This document shows positions 3 to 49,033 of a stretch of DNA of 64,000 nucleotides, in pieces (the stretch's first letter is position 1; each line of letters starts with the position of its first letter). Position numbers and translations under genes: made by a program. Source of the stretch: Candidatus Omnitrophota bacterium (GTDB lineage: Bacteria > Omnitrophota > Gorgyraeia > Duberdicusellales > 4484-171); contig JBDRAN010000059.1 of assembly GCA_043823745.1 (NCBI GenBank), positions 9,105 through 73,104 of the forward strand, in the 5' to 3' direction. The notes beneath the pieces are model-generated. The model did no database searches. It worked only from the letters and a program-made list of their open reading frames with translations, and was not told the origin of the DNA.

Positions 3-1652
3 TTGGTATGCTTTCTTAAAAAGAAAAGTTTAGAAAGGAAGGGCGGGGTGAAGATAGCAGTCATTGGCTCAGGTGCGATCGGGGGGCTCCTCGCAGGGTA
101 TCTAAGCAAGATCGGTGAGGATGTGGTGCTCGTTTGTCGTTCTGAATCGGCAAGGATTATCAGTCGGGATGGGATTTCCATAAGCGGTGTGCGGGGAACG
201 CATACGATAAAGATCAAGGCAGTGAGCGTGTTGGGTGAGCATGTTGATCTGGTTATTCTGGCGACTAAGACGCAGGACTTAAAGGAAGCTTTGATCGCAA
301 ACAAAAAATATGTAAGCGCTGCGATGGTACTTACCACGCAAAACGGCGTTGCCGCTGATACCATTGTTTCCGAATATGCGGATGCAAAGAATATTATTTC
401 AAGCATTGTGATGTTTGGAGCGACCTCGCTTGAGGCAGGGCGCATCGTCCATAACTTCGAAGGCACGTGGGTTTTGGGAAAACCATTTGGCGCTAGCGGC
501 GATGACGTTAAAGAGGTCGCCGACGTTTTAGAAAAGATCATTCCCGTTGAGGTCTCAAGCGACATCACCGGGATGAAATGGTTGAAAGTCTTTGTAAATT
601 CCAGCAACTGCATCCCGGCGATTCTGGGTAAAAGTATGCAGGAATGTTTCACCAATCTTGATGCCTGCGCGGTGGCGATGGGCATCTGGCAGGAGGGCCT
701 GGGTGCGGTCGGGAAAGCGGGAATTAAACTTGTTTCGTTACCCGATTTTCCTTTAGAGCGATTGACCAAGCTTGCCGGCTTGCCGGTTAGCGAATCAGCG
801 AAAATATTTTCCGGCATTATGACCAATTTGAGTAAAGAACCGGTATACGGCTCGATCTTACAGAGCATTAAAAGAAAAAAATCTTCTGAAATAGATTATA
901 TTAACGGAGCGTTTGTGGCGTTGGGTAAACAACATTCGTTTCATACGCCGCTTAACAAACGGTTGGTGGAAATGGTGCATAAGGTTGAGCAAACCGGAAT
1001 GTTTTTTTCTTTTGATGAGTTTGTTGAGAAAGCAAAAAATCTTATTCCGCAGAAGCGCGTGCACAATGCTGATGCGGTGAATACGCCCTTTCCGAAACTG
1101 AAACTTACCGTGAGCAAGGTTGAGGGCGAGTGCTACCATGGGTATAAAATCGGCGATGAAATCATTTTGGAAGATTTTACGCACGCGCCCAAGCATTTCT
1201 GTTTGGGTCTTGCACACGCGCTTTTTCCGGTAATTTATGCGTTAAGTTTTGGCGCGAAGTTTCCGTTTAGGGATAACCAGCGAACGCTCCCGGTTACCTG
1301 TCCCGATGGTGGAAAACTAGAGTTTAAGGCGGAGATCCTCGCTCAAGACGGCACCATTGAATCAATCGAGAAAGACCCTAACCATAAAGGCCCCAACCCC
1401 AAAGATATGGTGTTGGAGGTTGTTCGAGCCAAAGGGCATTGCGCGTATAAGTATAAATTGGGTGATACCTTTGAAGTGAAGGGCCTTAAGTGTCCCGAAG
1501 GTTTTTGCGGCGCGGCGTATCACTGCGCGTTTCCGGCGCTCTTTGCTCTTAATTTCGGCGCAAAATTTTTCTTCATGGATGATCCGGAGGGTATTGATAC
1601 CGTAACCTGCCCGGACGGCGGGAACATTGTGTTTAAGGTGAGTAGACGCTAA
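3..1652 (+). CDS. Fusion protein: N-terminal 2-dehydropantoate 2-reductase (ApbA/PanE, KPR)-like NAD(P)-binding domain plus two tandem C-terminal TIGR04076-like Cys-rich domains. True start may be the GTG at 49.
   Basis: Rossmann motif KIAVIGSGAIGG at the N-terminus. Two repeats of ~90 aa each carrying C-x-x-G, FC, FG-AKF-F and TCPDGG motifs (CYHGYKIGD...TCPDGGKLEF and CAYKYKLGD...TCPDGGNIVF). Confidence 0.6.
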   Translation: MVCFLKKKSLERKGGVKIAVIGSGAIGGLLAGYLSKIGEDVVLVCRSESARIISRDGISISGVRGTHTIKIKAVSVLGEHVDLVILATKTQDLKEALIANKKYVSAAMVLTTQNGVAADTIVSEYADAKNIISSIVMFGATSLEAGRIVHNFEGTWVLGKPFGASGDDVKEVADVLEKIIPVEVSSDITGMKWLKVFVNSSNCIPAILGKSMQECFTNLDACAVAMGIWQEGLGAVGKAGIKLVSLPDFPLERLTKLAGLPVSESAKIFSGIMTNLSKEPVYGSILQSIKRKKSSEIDYINGAFVALGKQHSFHTPLNKRLVEMVHKVEQTGMFFSFDEFVEKAKNLIPQKRVHNADAVNTPFPKLKLTVSKVEGECYHGYKIGDEIILEDFTHAPKHFCLGLAHALFPVIYALSFGAKFPFRDNQRTLPVTCPDGGKLEFKAEILAQDGTIESIEKDPNHKGPNPKDMVLEVVRAKGHCAYKYKLGDTFEVKGLKCPEGFCGAAYHCAFPALFALNFGAKFFFMDDPEGIDTVTCPDGGNIVFKVSRR

Positions 1653-1776: not shown

Positions 1777-3024
1777 ATGAAGAGAGTCGTCATTACAGGC
1801 ATTGGTGTTATTTGCGCCGCCGGAGAGGATAAGGATACTTTTTATAATAATCTTATCGCCGGTAAGCCGTTTGTCGAGCGCGTCGAAAATTTCGACGTGA
1901 GTCTTTTTGTCTCAAAAATCGCTTCGCAAGATTTAGAATTTGACCCGCTTACATTCGGGATCAAAGATCATCTGCGCATGGATCGGTACGTGCAATTTGG
2001 TATCGCCGCGGCAAAGCAGGCGGTCGAAGACGCTCACATTGATTTTAAGAAGATAGATCGTAAACGTTGCGGAGTGATCCTTGCCAACGCAATCTGCGGT
2101 ACGCGTTTTATGGAAGAGGAGTTTTTGCTGGTTACCGAGTGGGGTAAGAAACCGATTGACCCTCGTCGTGGCCGGCCCTATTTGTATGACGCAGCGATGT
2201 TTAATACGCCCAGCGCCGAGGTCGGCGCCATCTACGGTACCCAGGGACTTAATTGTACGGTTTCAACCGGATGCACCGCGGCGACTGATTCACTGGGGTT
2301 TTCATTTGAGCTTATTCGCGAAGGAAAGCAGGATATTATTATCGCCGGAGGAACAGAGGCGCCGGTATGCCCGATTACGTTTGGTGCGTTTGACGTGGTG
2401 AATGTTTTGGCGAAAAATAATGACGAGCCGCATAAAGCGAGCCGCCCGTTTGATAATAAAAGAAACGGTTTTGTTATCTCGGAAGCTGCGGGGATCGTCG
2501 TGCTTGAAGAATTAGAGCATGCCAAAGCACGTGGAGCGCATATCTACGGCGAGCTCGTTGGTTATGGCACCAGCTGTAACGCGTTTCATATGACCGATTT
2601 GCCGGAGGATGGCGAGGCCATGGAGCGTTGCATTAAAGATGCGATCAGGGATGCCGGCATCAAAAACGAAGATATCGACTATATTAATACTCATGGTTCT
2701 TCAACCAGGCAGAATGATGTTTTTGAAACCAACGCCTATAAGGCAGTCTTTGGCGATTACGCCTATAAGCTGCCCATAAGCTCCATTAAATCGATGATTG
2801 GACACCCTTTGGCTGCAGCCAACGCGGTTGAAAGCGTTCTGTGCGCGATGATTTTCGAGAAAGGGGTCTTACCGCCGACTATTAATCAGGAAGAGCCTGA
2901 TCCAAAGTGCGATCTCGATTATATCCCTAACGTAAAACGGGAGCTCATGCCCAGATATATACTTAAAACAAGCAGTGGTTTTTCAGGGATCCATTCATCG
3001 ATAATATTTAAAAAATATAAGTAG
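1777..3024 (+). CDS. Beta-ketoacyl synthase (KS-alpha / FabF-like) with an intact Cys-His-His triad
   Basis: N-terminal ITGIGVI motif; active-site Cys in STGCTAATDS; His motifs INTHGSST and MIGHPLAAANAVE. RBS AAAGGAATAAAATG. Confidence 0.85.
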   Translation: MKRVVITGIGVICAAGEDKDTFYNNLIAGKPFVERVENFDVSLFVSKIASQDLEFDPLTFGIKDHLRMDRYVQFGIAAAKQAVEDAHIDFKKIDRKRCGVILANAICGTRFMEEEFLLVTEWGKKPIDPRRGRPYLYDAAMFNTPSAEVGAIYGTQGLNCTVSTGCTAATDSLGFSFELIREGKQDIIIAGGTEAPVCPITFGAFDVVNVLAKNNDEPHKASRPFDNKRNGFVISEAAGIVVLEELEHAKARGAHIYGELVGYGTSCNAFHMTDLPEDGEAMERCIKDAIRDAGIKNEDIDYINTHGSSTRQNDVFETNAYKAVFGDYAYKLPISSIKSMIGHPLAAANAVESVLCAMIFEKGVLPPTINQEEPDPKCDLDYIPNVKRELMPRYILKTSSGFSGIHSSIIFKKYK

Positions 3025-3125
3025 AAGCGGAACAACGCGGAACGAAACGCGGAAGTACGCAGAAATTCAGCGTAAATCCGCGTAGATATCCGCGGGAATC
3101 CGCTTCTATAAACAAAGAGGTCAAA
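3025..3125. repeat. Intergenic GCGGAA/TTCCGC word cluster with terminal inverted repeat (GAAGCGGAAC...GAATCCGCTTC) between the KS-alpha and KS-beta genes
   Basis: AAGCGGAACAACGCGGAACGAAACGCGGAAGTACGC...CCGCGTAGATATCCGCGGGAATCCGCTTC. Confidence 0.45.
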
Positions 3126-4358
3126 ATGAAAGAACGAGTCGCAATCACCGGTATTGGGGTCGTTTCCCCGGCAGGCTTGAAGAAGGAGACATTTTGGGCG
3201 AATTTAAAGCGCGGCGATTCTTTTATCGATGAAGTAACACGTTTTGACGCGACTCTCTATCCTTCGCGCATCGCAGGTCAGGTCCATGAACTTGACCATT
3301 ACTCGCATCTCCCCAGCCGCCTGGTAAAAAAGATCGATGTTTTTTCTCATATGGCATTGGTTGCCAGCGAACAGGCCCTGCAGGATGCAAAGATCGATTT
3401 GAGTAATGTCGATAAGAAACGCGTCGGGGTGTTTATGGGTAACGCTATCGGCGGCTGGCTCTTTGCCGAAACTGAATTACGCGATATGTACATCGAAGGC
3501 CGGGAGGGTGTTTCTCCGTATATGGCAAGCGCCTGGTTTCCCGCAGCTCCCCAGGGCCAGGTTACTATTTACTATGGTTTCAAGGGTTACAGCAAGACCA
3601 TTGTGGCGGATAAAGCTTCTTCGGCCCTGGCGCTTTGGTATGCGGCAAAAAATATTATTGACGGAAAGAATGATTATATTCTTGCCGGAGGCATGGAGGC
3701 GCCGATTACTCCCTACGCGCTCCTGAGTGCAAATTCCTGTGGTCAGCTTTCAAAGAATAATCTTAATCCCAAGTCTGCCTATAAGCCGTATGATCTATAT
3801 CGCGACGGTTTCGTGCTGGCAGAGGGCGCCGGGATCGTTAATCTTGAAAAAGAAGCCCACGCAAAAAAACGCGGCGTCTATGTGCACGCATTTTTAAAAG
3901 GCGTTGGATTCTCTTCGGACGGGTATCACTACGCGCGCTATAGTCCATCAAGCGAAAGCCTTGAGTATGCTATTAAGACGTGTCTTGATGATGCCGGCTG
4001 GTCAATAAAAGATGTTGATTATATCTGTCTTGATGCTGAGGCGACCGTGATGGGAGACTATCTTGAAACGCAGGCGCTTAAGCATGTATTTGGTAAGGAG
4101 TTAGCCCATATTGCATTGAGCGCCCCCAAAAGCATGTACGGTAATTTGCTGGGTGCCCAAACAGCGCTTGATCTTATCACGACTGTTTATTCAATGAATA
4201 ATAACCTGGTGTTTCCGACAATTAATTACCAGATGCACGACCCCTATTGTGATCTTGATTACACGCCGAACAGTCCACGAACGAAAGAAATTAAAAAAGC
4301 GCTTTTGCTCGCGCGCGGCAGGGGCGGTATTAATGTTGCGTTAGCGGTCGAAAAGTAG
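3126..4358 (+). CDS. Ketosynthase-like protein lacking the catalytic Cys/His residues (KS-beta / chain-length-factor-like partner)
   Basis: KS fold (ITGIGVVSPAG, GGMEAP). The position of the active-site Cys reads VADKASSALA, and both catalytic His motifs are absent (LDAEAT, YGNLLGA). Sits immediately downstream of the KS-alpha gene. Confidence 0.75.
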   Translation: MKERVAITGIGVVSPAGLKKETFWANLKRGDSFIDEVTRFDATLYPSRIAGQVHELDHYSHLPSRLVKKIDVFSHMALVASEQALQDAKIDLSNVDKKRVGVFMGNAIGGWLFAETELRDMYIEGREGVSPYMASAWFPAAPQGQVTIYYGFKGYSKTIVADKASSALALWYAAKNIIDGKNDYILAGGMEAPITPYALLSANSCGQLSKNNLNPKSAYKPYDLYRDGFVLAEGAGIVNLEKEAHAKKRGVYVHAFLKGVGFSSDGYHYARYSPSSESLEYAIKTCLDDAGWSIKDVDYICLDAEATVMGDYLETQALKHVFGKELAHIALSAPKSMYGNLLGAQTALDLITTVYSMNNNLVFPTINYQMHDPYCDLDYTPNSPRTKEIKKALLLARGRGGINVALAVEK

Positions 4359-4367
4359 GGTTATACA

Positions 4368-5150
4368 ATGAAAAAGCTATTTTTTGTTTTACTTTTTTTG
4401 TGCAGTGTCGCATTTGCGGCGCCAATCGATGATGTCGAGAAAGCATTTCAGAAAGGGCTACAATTAGGTAACCAGGGCAACATTGAAGAAGCGCTACAGG
4501 AATTTCAAAAGGTAGTTGCTGCAGATCAAAATAATTTACCAAAAGATTATTATTTTCAAACCGTCAGAGAAGCATATTTTAATATCGGCCTGCTACAATC
4601 AAAAAAGGGTGATTTGCGGGAAGGAAATCAGAGTTACCAGAAGGCATTACGCATAGACCCTAAGCATGCAAAGTCATTGTATTACCTTGCTATTAATTCT
4701 ATTGTAGCCGGAGAGATTGCCCAGGCGGCTACCTATTATAACCAAGCTAAAGCGTTAGGATTTACTAAAGATCCTCAGCAGCCAAGCACTCTTGTCGCTG
4801 ATCCACTCGCCGTCCTCACGCAACGAAGTATAACTATTGATTATCAATCCTATTTCGATCACAACAAACGCGTTATGATAAATGTCGAAGGAAATCCGAT
4901 CGGAGAGAACCAATTGATTCATGATGCCATTGGCGGCATCGAGAGAGTTCTAAAGATTTCTGGATTCGGCTTGTTCTCGCGAGCAACGGTAGAGTATATT
5001 CGAGAGCGAAATAAAACAATCGACATTGAACGGTGGAACGTTCAAGGTGAAGGGTGGGAGAAAACTCTTTGGGTCAAATATGATTTTGCTCCGCCGGCAG
5101 GTTTTCCTTATAAGGTTATGATCGAAGTTTCGGAGATGGAGATTAACTAA
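4368..5150 (+). CDS. Secreted TPR-repeat protein
   Basis: Signal peptide MKKLFFVLLFLCSVAFA-AP; TPR-like repeats (ALQEFQKVV, YFNIGLLQSKKGD, YQKALRIDPKHAKSLYYLAI). Confidence 0.5.
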   Translation: MKKLFFVLLFLCSVAFAAPIDDVEKAFQKGLQLGNQGNIEEALQEFQKVVAADQNNLPKDYYFQTVREAYFNIGLLQSKKGDLREGNQSYQKALRIDPKHAKSLYYLAINSIVAGEIAQAATYYNQAKALGFTKDPQQPSTLVADPLAVLTQRSITIDYQSYFDHNKRVMINVEGNPIGENQLIHDAIGGIERVLKISGFGLFSRATVEYIRERNKTIDIERWNVQGEGWEKTLWVKYDFAPPAGFPYKVMIEVSEMEIN

Positions 5151-5237
5151 AAAGTCTACCATCTTAATCGGGAAGATTATTTCTTTGTATTCTCGATAAT
5201 CATAACTATCTACGACTATTAGAGAGGAGGTAAAGAA

Positions 5238-5471
5238 ATGGCTTTAAACGAGGACGTTGTTAATGCGATAGCAGAGATTCTTGACGTGGACGCGGCAGGA
5301 TTGGCGCAGGATAAGAAGTTATATGATTCTATTGGTGTTGATTCCACGGAAATCGTGGAGCTGACCGTGGCGCTGGGAAAGCGTTTCGGCGTCAAAATCG
5401 CCACCAACGAGATAACAAAATTCTCAACACCCATAGAGATCGCGCAGGTGATTGAGAGTAAAAAACAATGA
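5238..5471 (+). CDS. Acyl carrier protein
   Basis: 77 aa, acidic; phosphopantetheine-attachment motif GVDSTEIVEL; strong RBS GAGGAGG upstream. Confidence 0.8.
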   Translation: MALNEDVVNAIAEILDVDAAGLAQDKKLYDSIGVDSTEIVELTVALGKRFGVKIATNEITKFSTPIEIAQVIESKKQ

Positions 5472-5539
5472 TTACAGCGTTTAGGGGATGATTCTAAAAT
5501 CTCCGGAATCTTTTTATAATCACTGGAATCATAATAATC

Positions 5540-6349
5540 ATGAAAATAATTGACCTCAGTTTGCCCATTGACGATAAAGCTTTCGAGGTACACCACGTTG
5601 CCATTGAGCGGGTGTCTCATAAAGCGGGGGTTGAGAAGTTTAACCGCGTGCTGATGGGGAAAACCTTACGGGGTAGGCTCCAATATCTTCTGGGCAAGCG
5701 CATTGTAAAAAAAGAAGACCTGCCGGATGAAGAATTTCTTTCTCTTGAAGTAGTGCATTCCCCGGTCCATATCGGCACTCATCTTGATTATTCATTTCAT
5801 TACGGTTCACAGTCAGAAAATCGTCCATCGAAAACCGCCGAGGAAATACCGCTTGAGTGGTGCTACCAGCGGGGCGTCAGGCTTGACTTGACCCATAAAA
5901 AGCCCAATGAGGTAATTACCGCGATTGACCTTGAGGCCGCACTTGGAAAAATTAATTATTCCCTGAAAGCGCTTGATATTGTTCTTTTATATACCGGGGC
6001 GGATAAATTATACGGCGGACCGAAATATTTTAGTGATTACCCGGGTGTGGATATCTCAGCTATTGATTATCTCCTTGATCACGAAGTTAAGATTTTCGGC
6101 GTGGATACGATGGGCATTGACCGGCCCTATCGTTTTATGCTTGGTGAGTTCCTTAAATCAAAGGATTCTAAGAAATTATACCCGGCGCATTTTTATGGCC
6201 GCATTCGCGAGTTCATCCATATAGAACGTTTAGCGAATTTGGAAAAATTACCTGATTCAGGTTTTATGGTCAACTGTTTTCCGGTGAAGATCAAGAATAC
6301 GGGTGCAGCCTGGGCAAGGGTGGTTGCGTTTATTGATAACGATAGGTAA
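5540..6349 (+). CDS. Cyclase-family protein (PF04199; kynurenine-formamidase / polyketide-cyclase-like metal hydrolase fold)
   Basis: H-x-G-T-H-x-D signature VHSPVHIGTHLDYSFHYG; length ~270 aa, typical of the family. Confidence 0.7.
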   Translation: MKIIDLSLPIDDKAFEVHHVAIERVSHKAGVEKFNRVLMGKTLRGRLQYLLGKRIVKKEDLPDEEFLSLEVVHSPVHIGTHLDYSFHYGSQSENRPSKTAEEIPLEWCYQRGVRLDLTHKKPNEVITAIDLEAALGKINYSLKALDIVLLYTGADKLYGGPKYFSDYPGVDISAIDYLLDHEVKIFGVDTMGIDRPYRFMLGEFLKSKDSKKLYPAHFYGRIREFIHIERLANLEKLPDSGFMVNCFPVKIKNTGAAWARVVAFIDNDR

Positions 6350-6430
6350 TCCCGTTTCGCGGCTTACGCCAAAATTATCATGCTTGCAAAGTAAGCGCGA
6401 TAATTTTGACGCGCTCAACGGGATAATTCT

Positions 6431-6519
6431 CCCCATTTTGCACCCGATAAGGTCTCTCGCAATTTCCTCACCGCAGGGCGGCGAGAAATTGCGAAAATAT
6501 CAATAGAGGCAAAATGGGG
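6431..6519. repeat. Copy A of a ~95-bp nested-palindrome intergenic element. Outer stem CCCCATTTTGC/GCAAAATGGGG; inner stem TCGCAATTTCC/GGAAATTGCGA.
   Basis: Near-identical copies at 8820-8915 and, inverted, at 11450-11546. Each lies just downstream of a stop codon. Confidence 0.7.
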
Positions 6520-6713
6520 ATCATTGAGGTGCAGTGGTGGGCGCGCGCGGCGGCACTATGGGGCAAATAATGTGTTACGTATCCCGACTCGCCTAAATAT
6601 TGGTGAAATTTTCAAAGAAAATTTCACTCAAAGCTCGTCGGGATAATTTGCACTATTATTTTTTCTACGCGCATATGCGCTTGAAAAAATAATGTGCGCA
6701 TTAGGAGGTGCAC

Positions 6714-7154
6714 ATGGGTCATACGGTTAATTCGATTGTTATTAACGCTCCTTATGAAAAGATATTCGATATCTCAAACGATATCACCCGTTGGACGGAA
6801 CTTTTTGGAGGAGAATATAAAAAAGCAGAAGTTGTAAAGAAGGAAGATAACAAGATCACGTTTAGGCTTACTGATGATGAAGGCAGGAGCTGGCAGTCTT
6901 GGCGGCTTTTATTAAAAGAAAAATATCTTGCCTACGCCGAAAGAGAGGAACCGAAGTTCCCCTTCAAGTTTATGAAAATTATCTGGCTTTATACCGAGCG
7001 TCCCACCGGCATTGAGATGACCTGGATCCAGCATTTTGAAATGGATGAGAAAGCAAAGTTTAACGACGAACAAGTTGAAGGTTTTATTAATAAGCATTCC
7101 AAGGATAACCTGAAAATATTTAAGGAAGTTATCGAGAGAGAATCACAGAAATAA
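6714..7154 (+). CDS. SRPBCC-family protein (polyketide cyclase/dehydrase-like, Polyketide_cyc2 fold)
   Basis: ~147 aa with an N-terminal VNSIVINAPYEKIFDISNDITRW pattern typical of the START/Bet v1-like polyketide cyclase family. RBS AGGAGG 9 nt upstream of ATG 6714. Confidence 0.6.
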   Translation: MGHTVNSIVINAPYEKIFDISNDITRWTELFGGEYKKAEVVKKEDNKITFRLTDDEGRSWQSWRLLLKEKYLAYAEREEPKFPFKFMKIIWLYTERPTGIEMTWIQHFEMDEKAKFNDEQVEGFINKHSKDNLKIFKEVIERESQK

Positions 7155-7226
7155 TGCAGTATCACGTCGCACGTAACAGGTAACACGTTCTCAAAACCTG
7201 ATACGTGTTGCTTATTACTTGATACA

Positions 7227-8351
7227 ATGAAAAAACTTACTTTTATTATCCTTTGTCTTGAAGGCGCGATTCTTTCGTTTAACGTGGCGGCAGCCGCGGC
7301 TTTGATCCCTTCCATCGCGCGCGATTTCGGAGTGCCCGCGGTTACGCTAGGCTCGATTGTCTGGCTTTATATGATACCGTATGGTCTCGCGGCTCTTGCC
7401 TATGGGCCCCTGGTGCGCGTATTCGATGCCAAGCGCGTGGAGCTGGTGTGTTTCTTTTTCTTCTCGGTGGCGAATCTTATGGCGGCATTTTCGCGCACCC
7501 TGGTAAGTCTTTCGGTCGCGCGGTTCTTGATGGGCGCTTTTGGAGCCTCAGTTATACCGCTTGTTCTTATTCTGATCGCGCGTCATACCGAGAGCGCCTG
7601 GCGCGGGAAGCTCGTGGGTACTTTTTTTAGCGCGACATTTGTGGCATCGCTGGTTGGCCTTCTTTTAAGCGGCGTTCTGCATTGGCGCCTGATTTTTCTT
7701 ATTCCGGCGATTGCCGGATTTTTGCTTCTGGTGTGCATGGCGGTTTTTCTGCCGCGCTTTGCGCCTGAGGCTTCGCATCAAAAGAGTAATTATAAGGCGA
7801 CTCTTGCCGATACGCGGGTACTGAAGTTTTTTACCTATATATTCTTGATTAGTTTCTTATATCATGGTGTTCAGCAATGGCTCGGCGTTTATTTTAGCGT
7901 CCGTTATGGTCTTTCTCAAATGCTGGTCAGCGCCCTGGTGACCTTGACCAGCTTAAGCGGTATCTTTGGAGAGGTCATCGGCGGGTGGTTCTCTGATAGT
8001 GTAGGTAGAATTCTTACCGCAAATGTAGGTATTGTTCTCATGGTGGCCAGTTGCGCGCTGCTTGTTTTTAAAATGCCTTTTGTTGCGCTTAGTGTGCTTA
8101 TGATTGTCTGGGGACTCGGTTGGACACTCAATCATGCCGGCATATCAACGATACTTACGGATTTGCCGCGTGAGTTTTTAAACGAAGCAGCGAGTTTAAA
8201 TAGCGGTGTACGTTTTCTTTCAGGGGGCCTGGGGATGTTTCTGGGGGGCATCGTGATGCAGAAAAGCTTTATCTTAGGGTTTTCTGTCGCGGCTGTTTTG
8301 CTGGCGGCTTTATTGCTATTTTCTAAACGACTAACTAAAGCCATCGCATGA
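7227..8351 (+). CDS. MFS transporter (probable efflux pump)
   Basis: 374 aa, ~12 predicted hydrophobic helices; MFS-like motif GPLVRVFDAKR between TM2 and TM3. Confidence 0.75.
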   Translation: MKKLTFIILCLEGAILSFNVAAAAALIPSIARDFGVPAVTLGSIVWLYMIPYGLAALAYGPLVRVFDAKRVELVCFFFFSVANLMAAFSRTLVSLSVARFLMGAFGASVIPLVLILIARHTESAWRGKLVGTFFSATFVASLVGLLLSGVLHWRLIFLIPAIAGFLLLVCMAVFLPRFAPEASHQKSNYKATLADTRVLKFFTYIFLISFLYHGVQQWLGVYFSVRYGLSQMLVSALVTLTSLSGIFGEVIGGWFSDSVGRILTANVGIVLMVASCALLVFKMPFVALSVLMIVWGLGWTLNHAGISTILTDLPREFLNEAASLNSGVRFLSGGLGMFLGGIVMQKSFILGFSVAAVLLAALLLFSKRLTKAIA

Positions 8352-8755
8352 GCTTGTACGAACTTTTTTTCGCAGGGAGTCTATGCGTATTTTTATTATT
8401 ATCGCACGTACCAGCTGCGCGCGCTCAGAATCCTGCGGAGCCGGCTCTTAAATTTTTTGTCGTTAATTGTGATGAGAAGCTTACGTGGATTGATTCTTCA
8501 GGACCGTCGGAAGGCATTATCCGTAAATATTGGCTCGATGACGGAGTATTTGTTGTTGAGTATTTTGTGAAAGCAGATTGCAGCGGCGTTACTTTTTCCG
8601 GAGACTATGAGCTGCGCGATAGCCTTTTGGTGTTAAAGCGTACGGTTGCACAAGATCAAGGCTCGGCGCGATGTGTTTGTGCGCATAGACTTGTGTATGA
8701 GTTTTCAGGGTTGCCTAAACGCGATTACGGTATTGCTATAGAGGCGAAGAGATAA
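8348..8755 (+). CDS. Hypothetical secreted protein
   Basis: Signal peptide (LLLSHVPAARA-QN); no recognisable domain. Start overlaps the MFS stop codon (ATGA). Confidence 0.35.
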   Translation: MSLYELFFAGSLCVFLLLSHVPAARAQNPAEPALKFFVVNCDEKLTWIDSSGPSEGIIRKYWLDDGVFVVEYFVKADCSGVTFSGDYELRDSLLVLKRTVAQDQGSARCVCAHRLVYEFSGLPKRDYGIAIEAKR

Positions 8756-8819
8756 GGGCAAACGAGATAGCAACTTTTCAAGCGACCAAAGGGAGTGCCG
8801 GAAAGGTGCGTAATCGAAT

Positions 8820-8915
8820 GAGTCCCGTTTTTGCACCCGATAGGTTCTCTCGCAATTTCCTGCCGGAGAGAGGCAAGGAAATTGCGAAAATATCAATGGA
8901 GGCAAAAACGGGGTC
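8820..8915. repeat. Copy B of the ~95-bp nested-palindrome element
   Basis: GAGTCCCGTTTTTGCACCCGATAGG...TCGCAATTTCC...GGAAATTGCGAAAATATCAATGGAGGCAAAAACGGGGTC. Confidence 0.7.
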
Positions 8916-8998
8916 AATTCGCGCAGGTGACTTATGAGCGCTTACGTGCGAACGCTTCATACGTCACGCGCTCATTGAATACCTGGCCATATCGGATG

Positions 8999-9064
8999 GG
9001 CCAGTATGCATCTCTATGCAACACCCGGCCGAATTGGAACGGCCAGTATGCATCTCTATGCAAG
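8999..9064. promoter_or_regulatory. Two perfect 23-bp direct repeats, GGCCAGTATGCATCTCTATGCAA, 43 bp apart. Each contains the dyad TGCAT-N4-ATGCA. They lie directly upstream of the SDR gene, so I read them as candidate operator sites.
   Basis: Copies at 8999-9021 and 9042-9064. The second copy ends 4 nt before the RBS AGGAGG of the SDR gene. Confidence 0.45.
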
Positions 9065-9073
9065 GAGGATATA

Positions 9074-9846
9074 TGGTAAATCTTAAAGGAAAAACAGCAA
9101 TTGTAACCGGCGCAAGCCGTGGTATTGGCAAGGCCTTGGCCTGCACTGCCGCAAGCCTTGGTATTAATCTTGGTATCGCCGCGCGCGGTGAGGGGCCTTT
9201 AAAGGAAACCGCCAAAGAGATCGAGAAAAAATATAAGGTACAAGTTGTGGCGGTGCCTTGCGATGTGACTAAACTTTCAGATTTAGAAAATCTGGTTGAA
9301 GAAACCAAGAAGCACTTTGGTTTTATTGATATCCTTATTAATAATGCCGGTGTTTCAAGCCAATATCCGTTCGAGAAGCAACCGATAGAGGATTTAGAGA
9401 GGCTTGCCTACACCAATTATCTTGGGTACGTGCGCCTGATTCGTCTGGTGATCAATGATATGATCGCGCGTAAATCCGGCGCTATCATCAATATGGTTTC
9501 CGGCTCGACTCTGGTTGATCCGGTTCCGCGTAATTTTATCGTGTATAGTTCCTTGAAGGTTGGGTTACGCGCGTTCTGCAAGGGGTTATTCTGGGAGATG
9601 CGCGATCACGGTATTAAGGTTACTTCAATTTTACCCGGCGTTACCGATACCGATTTAACTGGTAAGCTTGCGGAGGTAACGAATGATGCAGGTCGGCTCA
9701 TGACTACCGAGGCAATCGAGAATGCAGTGAAGTTCGCTTTGACGGTCCCGGCAAATGTCTGTCCTTTGGAAATTGCAGTTATCAACCAGCAGACCCCCTG
9801 GACTAAACCGGTGATACCGTTTAAGCAGACGCATCCGGATAAATAG
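9074..9846 (+). CDS. Short-chain dehydrogenase/reductase (ketoreductase-like SDR)
   Basis: TGASRGIGKA cofactor motif, NNAG motif, and catalytic Y-x3-K within YSSLKVGLRAF. The real start is likely ATG 9074 after the AGGAGG RBS, not the longer ORF from 9016. Confidence 0.8.
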
Positions 9847-9980: not shown

Positions 9981-11438
9981 ATGAAGGTTTTATTTGTGCA
10001 ACCAAAAATCGGCGCGTGGGCAACACATGGAACACACTTTGCACCGAATCAGCTGTACGCGCAATGGGGAGCGTATATTCGCGCCAAGGGGTATAGTAAC
10101 CTTGAGGTGTTGGACGCGACGGTTCTCGCTATCGGGCTTGAGCAGATCGGGGAAAAAGTTAAAGAAAAAAATCCCGATGTCGTCGTGCTTGGCGATATGA
10201 TTCATTGTTCTGTCGGTTTTGGCATCATCTGGCATTTTAACCAGGCCGCCGCGCGCGTTAAGCAGGCGCTGCCAAAAGTGAAAGTGGTGATGGGCGGGCT
10301 GTGGTATTCCGCGCTTCCGGTGCAAACGTTAGAGGACAATCCAGCGATTGACTATGTGGTTATGGGAGAGGAAGAATCATTTTTTGATCTCATTGACGCG
10401 CTTGCCAAAGGCAAAAGCACCAAAGATATTGGCGGCGTTACTTCGCGCGTAGACGGCTTGCCCGTAATGGGCCCGCATAGGCCTTTACTGCAGGATTTAG
10501 ATCAGCTGCCGCTTCCGGCGTATGATTTGTTTCCGATGGATAAATATGTGGGGCATACCTTCTGGAAGCCGTTTGTGGAAATGATTACTTCCCGGGGGTG
10601 TCCTTCAGCGTGCACATTCTGCTACGAGTGGGATCAGTATGATCCTCGTTCACCTAATGATTTTTTAACCTGGCGCGCAAAATCTCCGGAGCGTGTTATT
10701 GAGGAGCTCGAGCTCTTGCATAAAATGGGCACGAAAGTCGTTGTTATCCAGGATGATAATTTCAATGTGGATGCTAGCCGCGTTGAGAAGTTTTGTCAGT
10801 TGAAAAAAGCAAAGAATAATCCGATTAAATGGGTGTCGCTCGGCCGCGCCGTTGACTGGGTCAACTGTGAAAAAATATTGCCGCTTATGAAAGAAACCGG
10901 TATGTTTATGGGGGTTTTCGGCATTGAGGTCACCACACCGGAAGAGCTTAAGAAAATAGCCAAAGGTATCACTATCGATCAAATCAAAAAGACCATTGAT
11001 ATTTTGCGTGCGCAAGATATCGCCATCGTCGCGGATATCATGATGGGCTTTGATGAGGACACGGAATATTCGATTAAGCAGCGTTATGAGTTTACCGATG
11101 AAGTTGATCCTGATATTCTGTGGGTCGGGTATGTTACGCCGGCCCCTAATTCTCCTATTTGGCGCCAGAGAGTCAAGCGCGGCGAGATCGATATCAAAAA
11201 GATTGATTTTCTTAAATGGGATTTTCTGCATCCGGTCATGGCAACCCCGCACCTTTCGCTTGAAGATTATGGAAGGCTCGGAGCGTGGTGCATGCGTGAA
11301 TTTTTTTCAAAGCCCGGTAGGATCCAGCGCATTATGACCAGCAACTTCGATCCCTTGGCAAAGCTTTGTTTTGAGGATGTTATGCGCGGGGTAACCAAGT
11401 GGGAAGCCGGCGCGGTGAAGGGAGAGAAGCATATTTAA
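9981..11438 (+). CDS. B12-binding-domain radical SAM protein
   Basis: N-terminal cobalamin-binding-like domain followed by the radical SAM motif SRGCPSACTFCYEW (C-x3-C-x2-C). Confidence 0.8.
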   Translation: MKVLFVQPKIGAWATHGTHFAPNQLYAQWGAYIRAKGYSNLEVLDATVLAIGLEQIGEKVKEKNPDVVVLGDMIHCSVGFGIIWHFNQAAARVKQALPKVKVVMGGLWYSALPVQTLEDNPAIDYVVMGEEESFFDLIDALAKGKSTKDIGGVTSRVDGLPVMGPHRPLLQDLDQLPLPAYDLFPMDKYVGHTFWKPFVEMITSRGCPSACTFCYEWDQYDPRSPNDFLTWRAKSPERVIEELELLHKMGTKVVVIQDDNFNVDASRVEKFCQLKKAKNNPIKWVSLGRAVDWVNCEKILPLMKETGMFMGVFGIEVTTPEELKKIAKGITIDQIKKTIDILRAQDIAIVADIMMGFDEDTEYSIKQRYEFTDEVDPDILWVGYVTPAPNSPIWRQRVKRGEIDIKKIDFLKWDFLHPVMATPHLSLEDYGRLGAWCMREFFSKPGRIQRIMTSNFDPLAKLCFEDVMRGVTKWEAGAVKGEKHI

Positions 11439-11449
11439 TGAGTCCTGTT

Positions 11450-11546
11450 TTTGCCTCAGTTGATTATTTTCGCAATTTCCTGTGCCCCAAAAGCGTAGGA
11501 AATTGCGAGAGAAACTATCGGGTGCAAAAACAGGACGAATTACCCC
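11450..11546. repeat. Copy C (inverted orientation) of the ~95-bp nested-palindrome element
   Basis: The reverse complement matches copies A and B. It starts 12 nt after the radical SAM stop codon. Confidence 0.7.
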
Positions 11547-11590
11547 GGACCACTTTCAAAAAAAATCGAAGAGATTTTTTGAACATGTAG

Positions 11591-12523
11591 GTGGTTCTGG
11601 TTGTATCTTCTCGATTACTAAGCAATTTTAAATCTATGTTGTGTGACGCACATCTTCATTTTATTCCCGAAGAGCTCGCCGGCCACACCTCTTTTTATAA
11701 AGGGGTATGGACGGACAAGGGGAAACTGTACGCTTTTCTTGATGCCCAAGGTATCGAGAGGGCACTCCTGGTGTATCCTTCGACGGATGCTCATTTGAAG
11801 CTTGGAGGGTATGCGCGTGTGTGCCATATGTATAATGCTTCCTGTCTTTCCCTTGCGAAAGAAAACAAGAAGATTATCCCCTCTGCGATTGTCGATATCG
11901 AAAACCTTACCGACATTACTTCTTGCGTTGCGGCGTTGCGTCAGGATGGTTTTCGCGCGATCAGCCTTGCCTCAAGCTACGCCGGCCGGTTCATCATTAA
12001 GGAACTTATACCTCTTTTTGAGGCGGTCGAGAAATATGGACTCGCAATTTTTGTCCACCCGCAAACTATAAACCCCATCGGTTTTGATCGTGTTAATGAT
12101 CCGCTGCTTATGCCGGTGCTTGAGTATAGCTTTGACAGCTCCATGTTTATGGGGCTTTTAATGATGGAGGGGGTTTTAGAAAAATTCGATATCCCTTTTA
12201 TCTTTTCATCATTAGGGGGGGTAATGCCGTTTTTAAAAGAGCGCTTTGACCGCGTCTACGGGATGCTTAGAGCCCGCAGTATCGTGAAAGATTTAGGGAA
12301 AAATCCCTCCGAGGTTCTCAAAAAAGTTTATGTGGATACTTCAAGTGCGTCTCTTGTACACATCAGGCTTGCGATTGAGCTTTTCGGGGAAGATAAAATT
12401 CTCTGGGGTTCTGATTATCCGGTGGCAGGCGATGTGACTGCAAGTATTGCGATGTTTGATGCGCTTGACCCGGCTCTAAAAGAAAAAATTACCGGTAGTA
12501 ACTTTCTGAAGCTTTTTGGTTAA
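11591..12523 (+). CDS. Amidohydrolase-2 family protein (ACMSD / aromatic-acid decarboxylase-like metal-dependent hydrolase)
   Basis: HLHFIP metal-binding His pair near the N-terminus, and a D-x-P motif (WGSDYPV) near the C-terminus, typical of PF04909. The start could instead be the internal Met at 11636. Confidence 0.6.
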   Translation: MVLVVSSRLLSNFKSMLCDAHLHFIPEELAGHTSFYKGVWTDKGKLYAFLDAQGIERALLVYPSTDAHLKLGGYARVCHMYNASCLSLAKENKKIIPSAIVDIENLTDITSCVAALRQDGFRAISLASSYAGRFIIKELIPLFEAVEKYGLAIFVHPQTINPIGFDRVNDPLLMPVLEYSFDSSMFMGLLMMEGVLEKFDIPFIFSSLGGVMPFLKERFDRVYGMLRARSIVKDLGKNPSEVLKKVYVDTSSASLVHIRLAIELFGEDKILWGSDYPVAGDVTASIAMFDALDPALKEKITGSNFLKLFG

Positions 12524-12619: not shown

Positions 12620-13423
12620 ATGAAAATATATAATAACGGTCAATTAGTCGATAAAGAGGGTATGCTTGAGATTTTTGAACCGGGGTTTCTTTTTGGCTGG
12701 GGAGCTTTTGAGACACTGCGCGCCTACCAGGGAAAGATACCGTTCCTGGCGCAACACATCGCGCGTCTGAACGAAACCTCAAAACATCTTGCGCTTGAGC
12801 TCGTGAGTCTTAACTTCGAAGAAATAATCAAAACGTTATTGCGCGAGAACAATGTGCTCGATGCCTACATACGTATTACCGCGTACAAGAGACGAGAAGG
12901 CACCGGTGTTCTGGTGTATATCGATCAATTCGGTTATTATCCGCAAAGCGTTTACGATAAGGGTTTTCGCGCTATCTTCACGCGCCATCGCCGGGATGCG
13001 GGGAATTATTTTTCAAAGATAAAGGCGCTCAGCTATCTTGAAAATCGCATGGCCTGGCACTCCGCGCAGGCCTCCGGCAATGATGAGGCGCTTATCTTAA
13101 ATAAAGAAGGGTTTTTGGTTGGAGGGTCTCGGAGTAATTTATTCTTGGTACGTAAAAAAGAAGTGCTCACGCCTTCGTTTGCAAATGGTGCGACAAATGG
13201 GATTACGCGTGATATAGTTATGGAATTGGCGCGTCAGATGCATATTGAGGTGCATGAGGCTGAACTTACCCAGGAAGACCTTTTTAGTTGTGATGAAGCT
13301 TTTCTGACTAGCGCTTTACTGGAGGTTATGCCTTTGGTAGAATGTGATGGTGATCCTATCGGTACCGCAAAGCCCGGCCCGGCCACACGTTTATTTTTAG
13401 AAGAATATAGGAAAAGTTTATGA
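12620..13423 (+). CDS. Class IV PLP aminotransferase-fold protein (BCAT / 4-amino-4-deoxychorismate-lyase-like), short form
   Basis: 267 aa with overall fold-type-IV architecture; the PLP-lysine region is near YKGFRAIFTRHRR. The size matches ADC lyase or D-amino-acid aminotransferase. Confidence 0.6.
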   Translation: MKIYNNGQLVDKEGMLEIFEPGFLFGWGAFETLRAYQGKIPFLAQHIARLNETSKHLALELVSLNFEEIIKTLLRENNVLDAYIRITAYKRREGTGVLVYIDQFGYYPQSVYDKGFRAIFTRHRRDAGNYFSKIKALSYLENRMAWHSAQASGNDEALILNKEGFLVGGSRSNLFLVRKKEVLTPSFANGATNGITRDIVMELARQMHIEVHEAELTQEDLFSCDEAFLTSALLEVMPLVECDGDPIGTAKPGPATRLFLEEYRKSL

Positions 13424-14370
13424 CAATGCATGATCTAAAGTTTTCCCCCTTATTCTGTCCCATTCACTTGAAAGCGGATAGTATCGCTATCCTTGATGAG
13501 ACGCTTCTGCCCCATAAAGTCAAATATATTGAAGTCAAAGACTATCGCGCGGCCTGCGATGCTATCAAGGGGATGAAGACTCGCGCGGTCGGACAGGTTA
13601 TTCTTGTTTTTTATACGTTTCTTTTGACCATACGTAAGAACCAGGATAAAAAAGATCTATTGCCTCTTTTAGAAGAGGTGGCGCAGGCAATCAACGCGAC
13701 CCGGCCGACATTATCGTTTAAGTATTTAACCGATATGATTCTGGGTTGGGCCCAAGCCGGGGCGCCCCTCGAGAAAAGTATTCTTGGATTTTTGGAGGGG
13801 CTTAAATACACGCGAATCGAGCAAGCCAAAGAAGCTGCGGCACTACTTTCTGACGGCGATACCATACTCACACATTGTAACATCAGTGGCCTTATGCCTT
13901 TAATTGGCCAGCTTGCCCACGCTGGAAATAAAAAAGTAACTTTCTTTGCTACCGAAACCAGGCCTTATTTGCAAGGTTCCCGGCTTACCGCCTGGGAACT
14001 AAAAGAAGCTGGTTTTGAGGTAATAGTTATTACTGATAACATGGTTGCTCAGGTAATGCATGAAGGAAAGATTGATAAGGTTATTGTGGGGGCAGACCAT
14101 CTTGCTGTGAACGGTGATGTTGCCAATAAGATCGGTACCTATCAAATCGCGATTGTCGCGCGAAACTTCAATATTCCTTTTTACGTGGTTTGCCCACCGG
14201 CTTCACGCGCCAAAAGCGGTAAGGATATTACCATCGAGATACGGCCGGATAAAGAATTGCTTGAGTACCAGGGTCTTCGGCTTGCGCCCAAGGGAGCACG
14301 AGGGTATTATCCGGCGTTTGACGTGACACCGAATGAGCTTATTAGTAAACATATTTATTTTAAAATATAA
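13420..14370 (+). CDS. eIF-2B alpha/beta/delta-family sugar-phosphate isomerase (MtnA / 5-deoxyribose-1-phosphate isomerase-like)
   Basis: 316 aa; conserved C-terminal GADhlavNGdvaNKiGTyqiAi block typical of S-methyl-5-thioribose-1-P isomerase and relatives. Confidence 0.7.
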   Translation: MTMHDLKFSPLFCPIHLKADSIAILDETLLPHKVKYIEVKDYRAACDAIKGMKTRAVGQVILVFYTFLLTIRKNQDKKDLLPLLEEVAQAINATRPTLSFKYLTDMILGWAQAGAPLEKSILGFLEGLKYTRIEQAKEAAALLSDGDTILTHCNISGLMPLIGQLAHAGNKKVTFFATETRPYLQGSRLTAWELKEAGFEVIVITDNMVAQVMHEGKIDKVIVGADHLAVNGDVANKIGTYQIAIVARNFNIPFYVVCPPASRAKSGKDITIEIRPDKELLEYQGLRLAPKGARGYYPAFDVTPNELISKHIYFKI

Positions 14371-14483: not shown

Positions 14484-15488
14484 ATGATAATCAATAACAA
14501 CGAAAAAATATTAAAAAAAGAAATAATCAATATTGGTAAAAAATTATATGAGTTGCGCCTTGTGGTTGCGCGCGCGGGAAATTTGAGTGCGCGGCTTGAT
14601 GGAAACACTGTCTTAGTTACTGCGAGCGGTACAAGTTTGGGGAATCTCACCGTAGATGATATTATCCGGATTGACATCCATAATGAGGAGGATGCAAAAA
14701 ATCCCCGTATAACGTCCGAGTTTCCTTTGCATCGTCTCGTGTATAAGAATTTTCCAAACAAAGTAACCATTCATTGCCACCCCACATTGATTAACGCTTA
14801 TTTTGCCCTTTTCTCTGACTTAAAGGCATTGACGTTTGAAACCAAACTTTATGTGGGCACCATTCCGGTTGTCGAGCAAGACACCCCATCAATCACGAAA
14901 CCGCAACTCGTGATTGATGCGTTAAAAATCAGCAATCTGGTTGTTATAAAAAATCATGGCGTGGTTGCAATCGCAGATACATTTAGGGATGCGTTATATG
15001 TAATCGAGACTTTGGAAGAGGCAGTAAAGGTAGCAGCAACTGCTCGTTTATTTAAAAAAGAAATTCTTGATAGTTTAGATACGGAATTAAAAGAAAATTT
15101 TCAAAGTGATTCGGCATTCGTAATGTTTTCAGAAGATCATATTCGCGCTATCGTGGATTTGGTAAATAAAGATGAGCTTATTGCAGCCAAAGGCAAAGAA
15201 TTGGATTTGACGTTAAAGCTGGCCATACAACTTGACGGTCATGACAAAATCTATAAATTTAATTTCGAAAAAGGAACAATCGTCAAATTAGATTTTGATG
15301 CAGATGCTCCCTTTGTGATCTCTGCGCCGACTGATGTTTGGGAATTAATCTTTTTGGGAAAACTTGATCCCTTTGTCGCCACCACACAAGGAAAAATGAA
15401 ATTACAGGGGCACTTAGGCCAGCTGAGCCGCTGGTATGTGCCGTTTACCCGGCTGTTTCAGTTGTTTAAACAAGTAAGAATTAAATAA
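14484..15488 (+). CDS. Class II aldolase/adducin-domain protein (MtnB / fuculose-P aldolase-like) fused to a C-terminal SCP2 sterol-carrier-like domain
   Basis: N-terminal class II aldolase pattern (VARAGNLSARLDG, IHCHPT). The C-terminal ~100 aa carry the SCP2 pattern (ATTQGKMKLQGHLGQLSRW). Confidence 0.65.
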   Translation: MIINNNEKILKKEIINIGKKLYELRLVVARAGNLSARLDGNTVLVTASGTSLGNLTVDDIIRIDIHNEEDAKNPRITSEFPLHRLVYKNFPNKVTIHCHPTLINAYFALFSDLKALTFETKLYVGTIPVVEQDTPSITKPQLVIDALKISNLVVIKNHGVVAIADTFRDALYVIETLEEAVKVAATARLFKKEILDSLDTELKENFQSDSAFVMFSEDHIRAIVDLVNKDELIAAKGKELDLTLKLAIQLDGHDKIYKFNFEKGTIVKLDFDADAPFVISAPTDVWELIFLGKLDPFVATTQGKMKLQGHLGQLSRWYVPFTRLFQLFKQVRIK

Positions 15489-25063: not shown

Positions 25064-25085
25064 AAGTAGGGCACAAGGGGGCTAT

Positions 25086-40085: not shown

Positions 40086-40100
40086 GGGGGAGGAAATTTT

Positions 40101-42207: not shown

Positions 42208-42231
42208 GGATTAAGTTCTTTCTTGTTTCTT

Positions 42232-49026: not shown

Positions 49027-49033
49027 GGATACA

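Follow-up and report, generated by a model that had tools for sequence, protein, structure and literature searches.

A probable aromatic type II polyketide synthase cluster of ancestral, non-actinomycete type conserved across anaerobic Omnitrophota

Whether bacteria of an uncultivated phylum encode the machinery for aromatic polyketide synthesis is the question raised by a gene cluster at one end of a 64,000-nucleotide stretch of Candidatus Omnitrophota DNA (assembly GCA_043823745.1, contig JBDRAN010000059.1, positions 9,105 to 73,104; this whole stretch is referred to as the window). Type II polyketide synthases (PKSs) are regarded as patchy, actinomycete-centred antibiotic or pigment systems, and characterised cases in anaerobes are few (clostrubin, wexrubicin, and dendrubin). 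The cluster described here sits in a phylum of ultra-small, perhaps host-dependent bacteria, and is conserved about like a core operon. With functions assigned by homology, it very probably represents an 'ancestral' non-actinomycete aromatic type II PKS of anaerobic Omnitrophota. The aromatic type II architecture, which a preliminary description of this DNA had proposed, is supported by the domain content, the ketosynthase (KS) tree, the pocket of an aromatase/cyclase (ARO/CYC), and a comparable locus in Clostridium. The genes at the centre of the proposal lie where the description had placed them, all on the plus strand and all with strong family matches:

1777..3024, plus strand: KS-alpha, catalytic ketosynthase (PF00109, 6e-44; PF02801, 7e-35)
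3126..4358, plus strand: KS-beta, partner resembling a chain-length factor (CLF), with an inactive site (PF00109, 2e-45; PF02801, 5e-24)
5238..5471, plus strand: discrete acyl carrier protein (ACP; PF00550, 6e-11; Ser in 'DSTE')
5540..6349, plus strand: PF04199 metal-dependent cyclase of the HxGTHxD type (4.5e-28; motif HIGTHLD)
6708..7154, plus strand: TcmN/WhiE-type monodomain ARO/CYC of the SRPBCC superfamily (PF10604, PF03364)
7227..8351, plus strand: major facilitator superfamily (MFS) transporter, likely an exporter (PF07690, 2e-39)
9073..9846, plus strand: classical short-chain dehydrogenase/reductase (SDR; PF00106, 1e-48); the open reading frame (ORF) opens at 9016, with the likely start at 9073

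The profile models by which the assignment was to be checked (PF00109/PF02801, PF04199, and PF10604/PF03364) all matched in the expected proteins. Aligned with Escherichia coli FabF, KS-alpha has a complete Cys-His-His triad, in agreement with the preliminary description. It also has an insertion of 5 residues as well as the motifs STGCT, HMTD(L), and HGSSTRQND, which are common to the actinorhodin ketosynthase (ActKS) and AntD and which FabF does not have. Its best PDB matches include AntD, from the anthraquinone PKS of Photorhabdus, at 357 bits and the KS of the actinorhodin system at 341 bits; most FabF proteins score lower, that of E. coli for instance 312 bits. Both window ketosynthases score under the cut-off of the FabF equivalog model TIGR03150 (493.75), KS-alpha with 451 bits and KS-beta with 365 bits. 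FabF proteins have the same thiolase-fold KS length and are 37–42% identical to KS-alpha and 34–37% identical to KS-beta; they differ from the window pair in that KS-alpha has the PKS-type motifs and insertion, KS-beta is catalytically dead, and there is no fatty-acid synthase (FAS) gene context.

KS-beta was described earlier as lacking all three catalytic residues. This holds for the Cys, which is replaced by Lys ('VADKASS'), and for the second His, which is replaced by Asp ('ICLDAEA') as it is in Streptomyces CLFs, but the first His is present ('GYHYAR'). Because more distant orthologues have Asp at that position, the retained His is not under constraint. At the position of the CLF-diagnostic Gln, which is Gln in the aligned Streptomyces CLFs, the window protein has Lys and every Omnitrophota orthologue has Lys or Arg. 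The nearest relatives outside the Omnitrophota all have Arg, Lys, or Ile there, which upholds the earlier suggestion that the Lys-type KS-beta is a distinct lineage. In actinomycetes, the CLF Gln primes synthesis by decarboxylating malonyl-ACP. Such Gln-dependent decarboxylative priming is unlikely to occur here in its actinomycete form; with Lys or Arg in place of the Gln, the chain is probably primed differently, possibly by way of an AMP-dependent ligase that is encoded just upstream of the cluster in most relatives. The best 120 matches of KS-beta are 69–100% identical to it, the identical one being encoded in a Candidatus Omnitrophota metagenome-assembled genome. Outside its own lineage, the named protein nearest to it occurs in Clostridium beijerinckii and C. 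puniceum, with 42% identity; identity to a Streptomyces CLF is 31%. Some proteins of ~800–870 aa (P0122, 869 aa; P0132, 824 aa; and others) match KS-beta in two stretches, and appear to be fused KS-KS proteins (KS-alpha/KS-beta-like) of metagenomic organisms.

Phylogenetic placement was assessed by a neighbour-joining (NJ) distance tree (60 sequences, 410 columns, 100 bootstraps), for which the references were three annotated Streptomyces KS/CLF pairs (from plasmids), the FabF proteins of E. coli, Bacillus subtilis, and Thermus thermophilus, ActKS, AntD, and the best single-domain matches from a representative library. Single-domain matches were used for KS-beta because giant type I PKSs dominated the library search through their summed domain scores. 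KS-alpha groups with AntD and a Clostridium KS-alpha in a non-actinomycete group (bootstrap 89), within a wider clade of 'STGCT'-motif KS-alpha proteins that includes the Streptomyces and actinorhodin KS-alpha and is separate from FabF (bootstrap 97). KS-beta falls in a clade made up entirely of Cys-less proteins (bootstrap 99), together with the three annotated Streptomyces CLFs and the Clostridium KS-beta. Placement of the KS proteins inside FabF, which would have told against the preliminary description, is thus found for neither of them. The KS-alpha and KS-beta subtrees have identical topology; the two proteins would accordingly appear to be co-inherited, and we count this congruence in favour of a PKS.

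The remaining core proteins are also of polyketide type. The Ser of 'DSTE' in the ACP aligns with that of 'DSLD' in AcpP, and the protein aligns with type II PKS ACPs as well. For the SRPBCC protein, the only significant PDB matches are the TcmN and WhiE ARO/CYCs (E 1e-23, full length). The equivalents of the TcmN pocket residues W28, E34, Y35, W65, S67, R69, M91, W95, W108, Q110, and N136 are invariant among 73 orthologues, in which the equivalent of R82 is Arg or Lys. The window protein keeps Tyr35, Arg69, and Arg82, the conserved key residues of monodomain ARO/CYCs (2026 review, PMC13525633). With such matches and such a pocket, the accessory genes are not generic hydrolases, which the preliminary description had named as a possible outcome. 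The PF04199 cyclase presumably closes later rings.

A type II fatty-acid system is one competing explanation, and the earlier observation that FAS II genes are missing is confirmed: the larger ORFs of the 64-kb window include none for FabD, FabH, FabZ, or FabI, and there is no fabG context. A more particular version would be a type II system that makes fatty acids or lipids and is specialised for an unusual ('ladderane-like') membrane lipid, in which the KS pair would elongate an acyl chain, with the SRPBCC and PF04199 proteins as lipid-binding or hydrolytic accessories. At 437 bits, KS-alpha does exceed the cut-off (387) of NCBIfam's broad subfamily model for 'beta-ketoacyl-ACP synthase II', a B12-binding radical S-adenosylmethionine (SAM) protein encoded downstream weakly matches the lipid-associated model TIGR04072, an aldolase further downstream carries an SCP2 domain, and ladderane-type biosynthetic gene clusters have been called in Omnitrophota metagenome-assembled genomes (MAGs) (PMC9902471). 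We nevertheless regard a lipid synthase as very improbable: dehydratase, enoyl reductase, FabD, and FabH genes are lacking from the cluster and from the larger ORFs of the window, KS-alpha lies under the FabF equivalog cut-off and with PKS KS-alpha proteins in the tree, the SRPBCC protein retains the full TcmN catalytic pocket, and the closest named relatives come from two Clostridium species that produce clostrubin, an aromatic polyketide.

Cys-less KS partners also occur in highly reducing or non-aromatic type II PKSs of the ishigamide, cispentacin, or aryl-polyene type, which likewise use a KS/CLF-like heterodimer. Such a system would suit the two conserved reductases of the cluster and the weak matches to the AmcF model, and has in our judgement the slightest chance of the explanations considered. 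The AmcF scores, 161 bits with KS-alpha and 123 bits with KS-beta, are far under the cut-off of 325, and the cluster has both a PF04199 cyclase and an ARO/CYC of the TcmN type. The cluster encodes no dehydratase, no enoyl reductase, and no Ape-type genes (thioesterase, LolA-like, MMPL); MMPL and LolA-like genes do occur at 46.7–53.6 kb, but are not syntenic with the PKS genes in other Omnitrophota. On these grounds, an aryl-polyene or polyunsaturated-fatty-acid-type cluster, the other outcome that the preliminary description had allowed for, is rejected.

Comparison with known systems places the window cluster closest to those outside the actinomycetes. A locus of C. beijerinckii and C. puniceum encodes KS-alpha and KS-beta proteins 45% and 42% identical to those of the window, with Arg at the Cys position of its KS-beta, and shares the order KS-alpha, KS-beta, carrier protein, PF04199 cyclase (E 4e-76), and monodomain SRPBCC protein (E 4e-39). 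It also encodes a homologue (E 1e-33) of an Amidohydro_2 protein found downstream in the window, and its host is likewise anaerobic. Two phosphopantetheinyl transferases, a KS III, a second ACP, two alpha/beta hydrolases, CMD, DUF362, and DUF169 proteins, and an ABC transporter are found only in the Clostridium locus, which in turn lacks the ketopantoate-reductase (KPR)-like protein, SDR, B12-binding radical SAM protein, MFS transporter, and salvage-like genes of the window. Thus, the window does not have the whole clostrubin-type complement, and seven parts are shared: KS-alpha, KS-beta, ACP, TIGR04076, PF04199, SRPBCC, and Amidohydro_2. Both Clostridium species are clostrubin producers, and ClrB, the clostrubin CLF, belongs to an ancestral type II PKS clade (PMC7693217); ClrB, DenB, AntE, and PcyF represent ancestral non-actinomycete type II PKSs with the architecture KS-CLF-ACP-TcmN-OxyN (PMC7693217).

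The clusters for AQ-256 (AntA-I, Photorhabdus), dendrubin (DenA-F), and pyxidicycline likewise combine a minimal PKS with TcmN-type and OxyN-type cyclases. AntD, from the AQ-256 system, is 45% identical to the window KS-alpha with which it groups at bootstrap 89, whereas AntE aligns with the window KS-beta in its N-terminal part only (128 bits). The ant cluster encodes a C9-type ketoreductase (KR), whereas the window SDR is without the act-type motif. We know of no B12-radical SAM or TIGR04076 component in these three clusters. They occur sporadically in single genera, whereas the window cluster extends across a phylum, and their aromatase is a TcmN-TcmN didomain protein (PMC7693217), whereas that of the window is monodomain. 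With actinomycete PKSs (actinorhodin, tetracenomycin, and the WhiE spore pigment), the window cluster shares the KS-alpha/CLF/ACP core, the ARO/CYC pocket residues, and the His-to-Asp change at the second CLF His. It differs from them in sequence (~40% identity for KS-alpha and ~31% for KS-beta) and in the Lys or Arg that replaces the CLF Gln; it also has neither O2-dependent tailoring enzymes nor TcmI- or TcmJ-type cyclases, and its host is anaerobic and Gram-negative. An anaerobic host fits the rest of the window, which encodes a flavodiiron protein, a ferredoxin-domain electron-transfer flavoprotein, and at least seven radical SAM proteins; the strict anaerobe suggested by the preliminary description is consistent with these genes, which are not proof of it.

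How far the cluster extends, and how widely, was determined from related loci (designated L with a number). One genome per GTDB species was scanned, and 102 genomes had a relative, of which 80 were retained; nearly all of these are MAGs of Omnitrophota, while some carry a Planctomycetia label and one a Methanosarcinales label, probably through errors of binning or naming. In at least 80 Omnitrophota species the cluster is present in almost the same gene order, and KS-beta is 55–90% identical across the 80 retained species genomes. The conserved unit is longer than the limits of 1777–9846 given earlier, which have to be extended: in the window it runs from the gene at 3–1652 to at least 15488, and in relatives it extends further, with genes whose place in this genome would be 5' of window position 1, as judged from relatives at 84–90% KS-beta identity. 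The further genes of the unit visible in the window are as follows:

3..1652, plus strand: KPR-like protein (ApbA/PanE) with a C-terminal tandem TIGR04076 region at residues ~365–549 (PF02558, PF08546)
9981..11438, plus strand: B12-binding radical SAM protein, BchE/HpnJ-like, under both cut-offs (PF02310, PF04055)
11591..12523, plus strand: Amidohydro_2 protein of the non-oxidative aromatic-acid decarboxylase family (PF04909)
12620..13423, plus strand: class IV aminotransferase or lyase, a variable neighbour (PF01063)
13420..14370, plus strand: MtnA-like 5-(methylthio/deoxy)ribose-1-phosphate isomerase (PF01008; TIGR00524, 205 bits, above cut-off)
14484..15488, plus strand: class II aldolase fused to an SCP2 lipid-binding domain (PF00596, PF02036; the same fusion occurs in locus L081)
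17617..19113, plus strand: aldehyde dehydrogenase, a frequent but non-universal neighbour (PF00171, 1e-164)

By tblastn with the window proteins, the order across related loci is (AMP-ligase)-(PNP_UDP_1 phosphorylase)-(94-aa protein)-KPR-like/TIGR04076-KS-alpha-KS-beta-ACP-PF04199-SRPBCC-MFS-SDR, followed by B12-radical SAM-Amidohydro_2-(class IV aminotransferase)-MtnA-like isomerase-class II aldolase/SCP2-(aldehyde dehydrogenase). The ligase and phosphorylase are directly upstream in the closest relatives (L002, L003, L004, L007, and L009). Presence of each gene, counted over the 31 related loci with full 10-kb flanks, is as follows:

KS-alpha, KS-beta, PF04199 cyclase, SRPBCC protein: 31/31 each
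ACP: 30/31
KPR-like protein, SDR, B12-radical SAM protein, 94-aa protein: 29/31 each
PNP_UDP_1 phosphorylase: 28/31
MFS transporter, Amidohydro_2 protein: 27/31 each
MtnA-like isomerase: 26/31
class II aldolase: 23/31
AMP-ligase: 21/31
aldehyde dehydrogenase: 16/31
class IV aminotransferase: 12/31
secreted tetratricopeptide-repeat (TPR) protein and 135-aa ORF (see below): 0/31 each

Outside the Omnitrophota, MAGs named 'Deltaproteobacteria' carry a version of the cluster (L081; GCA_964580455.1, 1-21242) with a KS-beta 56% identical to that of the window, an orthologue of the B12-radical SAM protein (E 2e-185), and an MtnA-like isomerase. The SDR is absent from L081 and is replaced by two aldehyde:ferredoxin oxidoreductase genes and an FAD amine-oxidase-like gene; MMPL and DUF1329 genes are directly upstream of that cluster. 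The salvage-like genes stay attached to the cluster in both the Omnitrophota and the 'Deltaproteobacteria' versions, with a change of side.

The first conserved gene visible in the window encodes the KPR-like protein (TIGR00745, 172 bits) fused to TIGR04076 (94 bits, in two stretches). In relatives the two parts are either fused or encoded as two genes, and TIGR04076 is a separate 196-aa gene in many of them and in L081. The TIGR04076 half is rich in Cys and His and is 76–87% identical in more than 120 protein clusters, which makes it the most conserved protein of the cluster. Its Clostridium homologue is fused to the N-terminus of a PKS ACP; because of this fusion, we suggest that the TIGR04076 domain acts directly alongside the carrier protein. 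Upstream of the KPR-like gene in relatives (e.g., L023 and L064), the ~94-aa protein has weak similarity to the PCP_red/DUF2621 domain, which is the C-terminus of the protochlorophyllide reductase B subunit; its gene would fall just outside the window.

Act-type C9 ketoreductases have an XGG motif after NNAG. The window protein, which had been described as an SDR ketoreductase, is indeed a classical SDR, but it reads 'NNAGVSSQY' where the Streptomyces KR has 'NNAGRSGGG', is without the KR insertion, and has a C-terminal extension; it is not an act-type C9 KR, so that the term ketoreductase was too strong, and the protein would better be viewed as a tailoring reductase. Because the SDR is not of act type and the cyclase is of the monodomain TcmN type, an unreduced chain with later reduction is suggested. 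A 23-nt direct repeat, GGCCAGTATGCATCTCTATGCAA, occurs in two copies 42 nt apart (8999–9063), directly 5' of the likely SDR start at 9073, and could be an operator or a duplication scar. The B12-radical SAM protein scores 192 bits against the BchE model (cut-off 481), and its gene is sometimes relocated in relatives, either between KS-beta and ACP or upstream of the cluster. PDB matches of the Amidohydro_2 protein are the decarboxylases ACMSD, LigW, and IDCase.

A pathway may be proposed from these parts, as follows. The KS-alpha/KS-beta heterodimer would condense malonyl-ACP units, with malonyl transfer and phosphopantetheinylation supplied from elsewhere in the genome, to give an unreduced poly-beta-keto chain, the length of which would be set by the dimer tunnel. 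The ARO/CYC would fold this chain and close and aromatise the first ring (C9–C14 in TcmN-type enzymes), after which the PF04199 cyclase would close the later ring or rings. The Amidohydro_2 protein would probably remove a terminal carboxylate, in keeping with the terminal decarboxylation proposed for dendrubin and pyxidicycline intermediates (PMC7693217). The KPR-like protein, the SDR, and the B12-radical SAM protein could provide O2-independent tailoring (carbonyl reduction, and C-methylation or another radical step), and the MFS pump would export the product.

Near-universal syntenic retention in small genomes speaks for a physiological function that has been conserved, and less for an antibiotic of sporadic occurrence. 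The same machinery might therefore make a core physiological metabolite, either a polyphenol or quinone with redox activity, or an aromatic compound that is cofactor-like or associated with the envelope, with the pathway serviced by a salvage route from the phosphorylase through the MtnA-like isomerase, aldolase-SCP2, and aldehyde dehydrogenase to the AMP-ligase. A DeoD-like phosphorylase, an MtnA-like isomerase, and a class II aldolase resemble the 5'-deoxyadenosine/methylthioadenosine 'dihydroxyacetone phosphate (DHAP) shunt'; for example, 5'-deoxyadenosine or methylthioadenosine could be turned into an acyl starter unit. This explanation, to which we give a small but appreciable chance, draws on the near-identical order and 55–90% KS-beta identity in the 80 species genomes, which include chromosomes of 1.3–1.8 Mb, and on the 76–87% identity of the TIGR04076 protein in the >120 clusters. 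The PNP_UDP_1 gene separates the ligase gene from those of the PKS, the genes for the isomerase and the aldolase adjoin the cluster in the 'Deltaproteobacteria' as well, and KS-beta has Lys or Arg and no priming Gln. The congruence of the KS-alpha and KS-beta subtrees also fits such a role. Furthermore, Omnitrophota encode a polyprenyltransferase and no chorismate lyase, such that a quinone from an alternative aromatic source is possible (Seymour et al., PMC10066038). Set against this, no prenyltransferase or other quinone gene is found within 10 kb at any locus, the salvage genes could be a housekeeping operon beside a radical SAM gene, the MFS transporter points to export, the ligase and aldehyde dehydrogenase are present in only 21 and 16 of the 31 full-flank loci, respectively, and the conservation may reflect sampling of related lineages. 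In its most specific form, namely a quasi-housekeeping operon for a redox-active or envelope metabolite made by O2-independent chemistry, with B12-radical SAM tailoring, TIGR04076 as an ACP-partner subunit and a salvage-derived acyl primer activated by the AMP-ligase, we consider the proposal unlikely.

Several points weigh against the assignment to an aromatic type II PKS. The CLF-diagnostic Gln is not present in the aligned KS-beta or its Omnitrophota orthologues, and among PDB matches KS-beta scores higher with FabF structures (280 bits) than with the actinorhodin CLF (220 bits). Its placement with CLFs rests on a distance tree in which fast-evolving Cys-less sequences could attract one another (long-branch attraction). 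Two reductases are conserved, although TcmN-type cyclases normally take unreduced chains. There is no malonyl transferase or phosphopantetheinyl transferase in the cluster, as is usual for type II PKSs. The Clostridium locus is presumed, from the species names and the description of the CLF, to correspond to the clr cluster of the literature. The role of TIGR04076 alongside the ACP is a guess, as are the roles assigned to the Amidohydro_2 protein, the B12-radical SAM protein, and the salvage-like genes.

Type II PKSs known from non-actinomycetes and anaerobes include those for clostrubin, wexrubicin, dendrubin, AQ-256, and pyxidicycline (PMC7693217). Candidatus Omnitrophica is one of 14 phyla for which a 2023 catalogue records KS-CLF pairs (PMC10132072), and the Omnitrophota-wide genomic studies that we compared make no mention of polyketides. 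Thus, KS-CLF pairs in this phylum had already been catalogued, while what we did not find described in the literature compared is the apparent extended phylum-wide syntenic cluster, the Lys/Arg-type CLF lineage common to Clostridium and the 'Deltaproteobacteria' MAGs, and the association with TIGR04076, B12-radical SAM, and salvage-like partners. The TIGR04076 repeat protein, the B12-radical SAM protein, and the SAM by-product salvage genes are partners not known from characterised type II PKSs. Identification of the product would bear on the role of aromatic polyketides in strictly anoxic, streamlined cells, on how such compounds are primed and tailored without oxygen, and on the form of an early, pre-actinomycete type II PKS. 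Non-actinomycete type II PKSs tend to be soluble in E. coli, and KS-alpha, KS-beta, the ACP, and the two cyclases form a defined gene set for plug-and-play expression in that host.

Two genes that interrupt the cluster in the window have no counterpart at related loci:

4368..5150, plus strand: TPR protein with a signal-like N-terminus, secreted (TPR Pfam matches)
8348..8755, plus strand: 135-aa ORF with a signal-like N-terminus (no Pfam or NCBIfam match)

Because none of the 31 related loci carries either gene, they are lineage-specific insertions and not parts of the cluster; the TPR gene does lie between KS-beta and ACP, as had been described, but it is not a cluster component. The same KS-beta/ACP gap holds unrelated secreted esterase- or depolymerase-like ORFs of 332–391 aa in L004, L005, L007, L008, and L010, and appears to be an insertion hotspot for secreted-protein genes. 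A ~95-nt palindromic element with the core TTTGCACCCGATAGGTTCTCTCGCAATTTCC is present in three intergenic copies (6415–6530, plus; 8808–8925, plus; 11440–11560, minus). It forms a long hairpin (-49 kcal/mol, z -8.3), with compensatory changes in the outer stem between copies. None of the 87 related loci carries the element, which therefore looks genome-specific and resembles repetitive extragenic palindromes or miniature inverted-repeat transposable elements (REP/MITE-like). An Rfam scan of the whole window at the gathering threshold gave no match, which argues against a riboswitch in the cluster, and promoter and terminator scans gave no useful excess over shuffled expectation.

Several contigs that carry the Omnitrophota-type cluster with 76–80% KS-beta identity are assigned to other taxa: L030 (JAIWAR010000044.1) is named 'Methanosarcinales archaeon', and L013, L014, L021, and others are named 'uncultured Planctomycetia'. 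These are probably mis-binned or mis-named, a point relevant to the type II PKS CLFs that a catalogue assigns to archaea (PMC10132072).

Elsewhere in the window, the region 39282–53601 encodes a FeeM-like N-acyl amino acid synthase, ThiF, a beta-eliminating lyase, MMPL, DUF1302, and LolA-like/DUF1329 proteins, and a PlsC-type acyltransferase, as well as three further B12-radical SAM proteins (genes at 40471, 42718, and 49034, minus strand); it may be a lipid modification and export cluster. A tie between the PKS and the MMPL, LolA-like, DUF1302, and B12-radical SAM genes of this region (46.7–53.6 kb) was considered and rejected, as these genes are non-syntenic in other Omnitrophota and are 24–25% identical to those of L081. 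At 55925–60949 there is a gene for a 1674-aa structural maintenance of chromosomes (SMC) protein with an intein near its N-terminus that contains a LAGLIDADG homing-endonuclease domain. Two unusual fusions are encoded at 23768–25063 (HypC/HupF with a radical SAM/BATS domain) and at 25044–25937 (an AhpC/Redoxin peroxiredoxin with pterin-4a-carbinolamine dehydratase).

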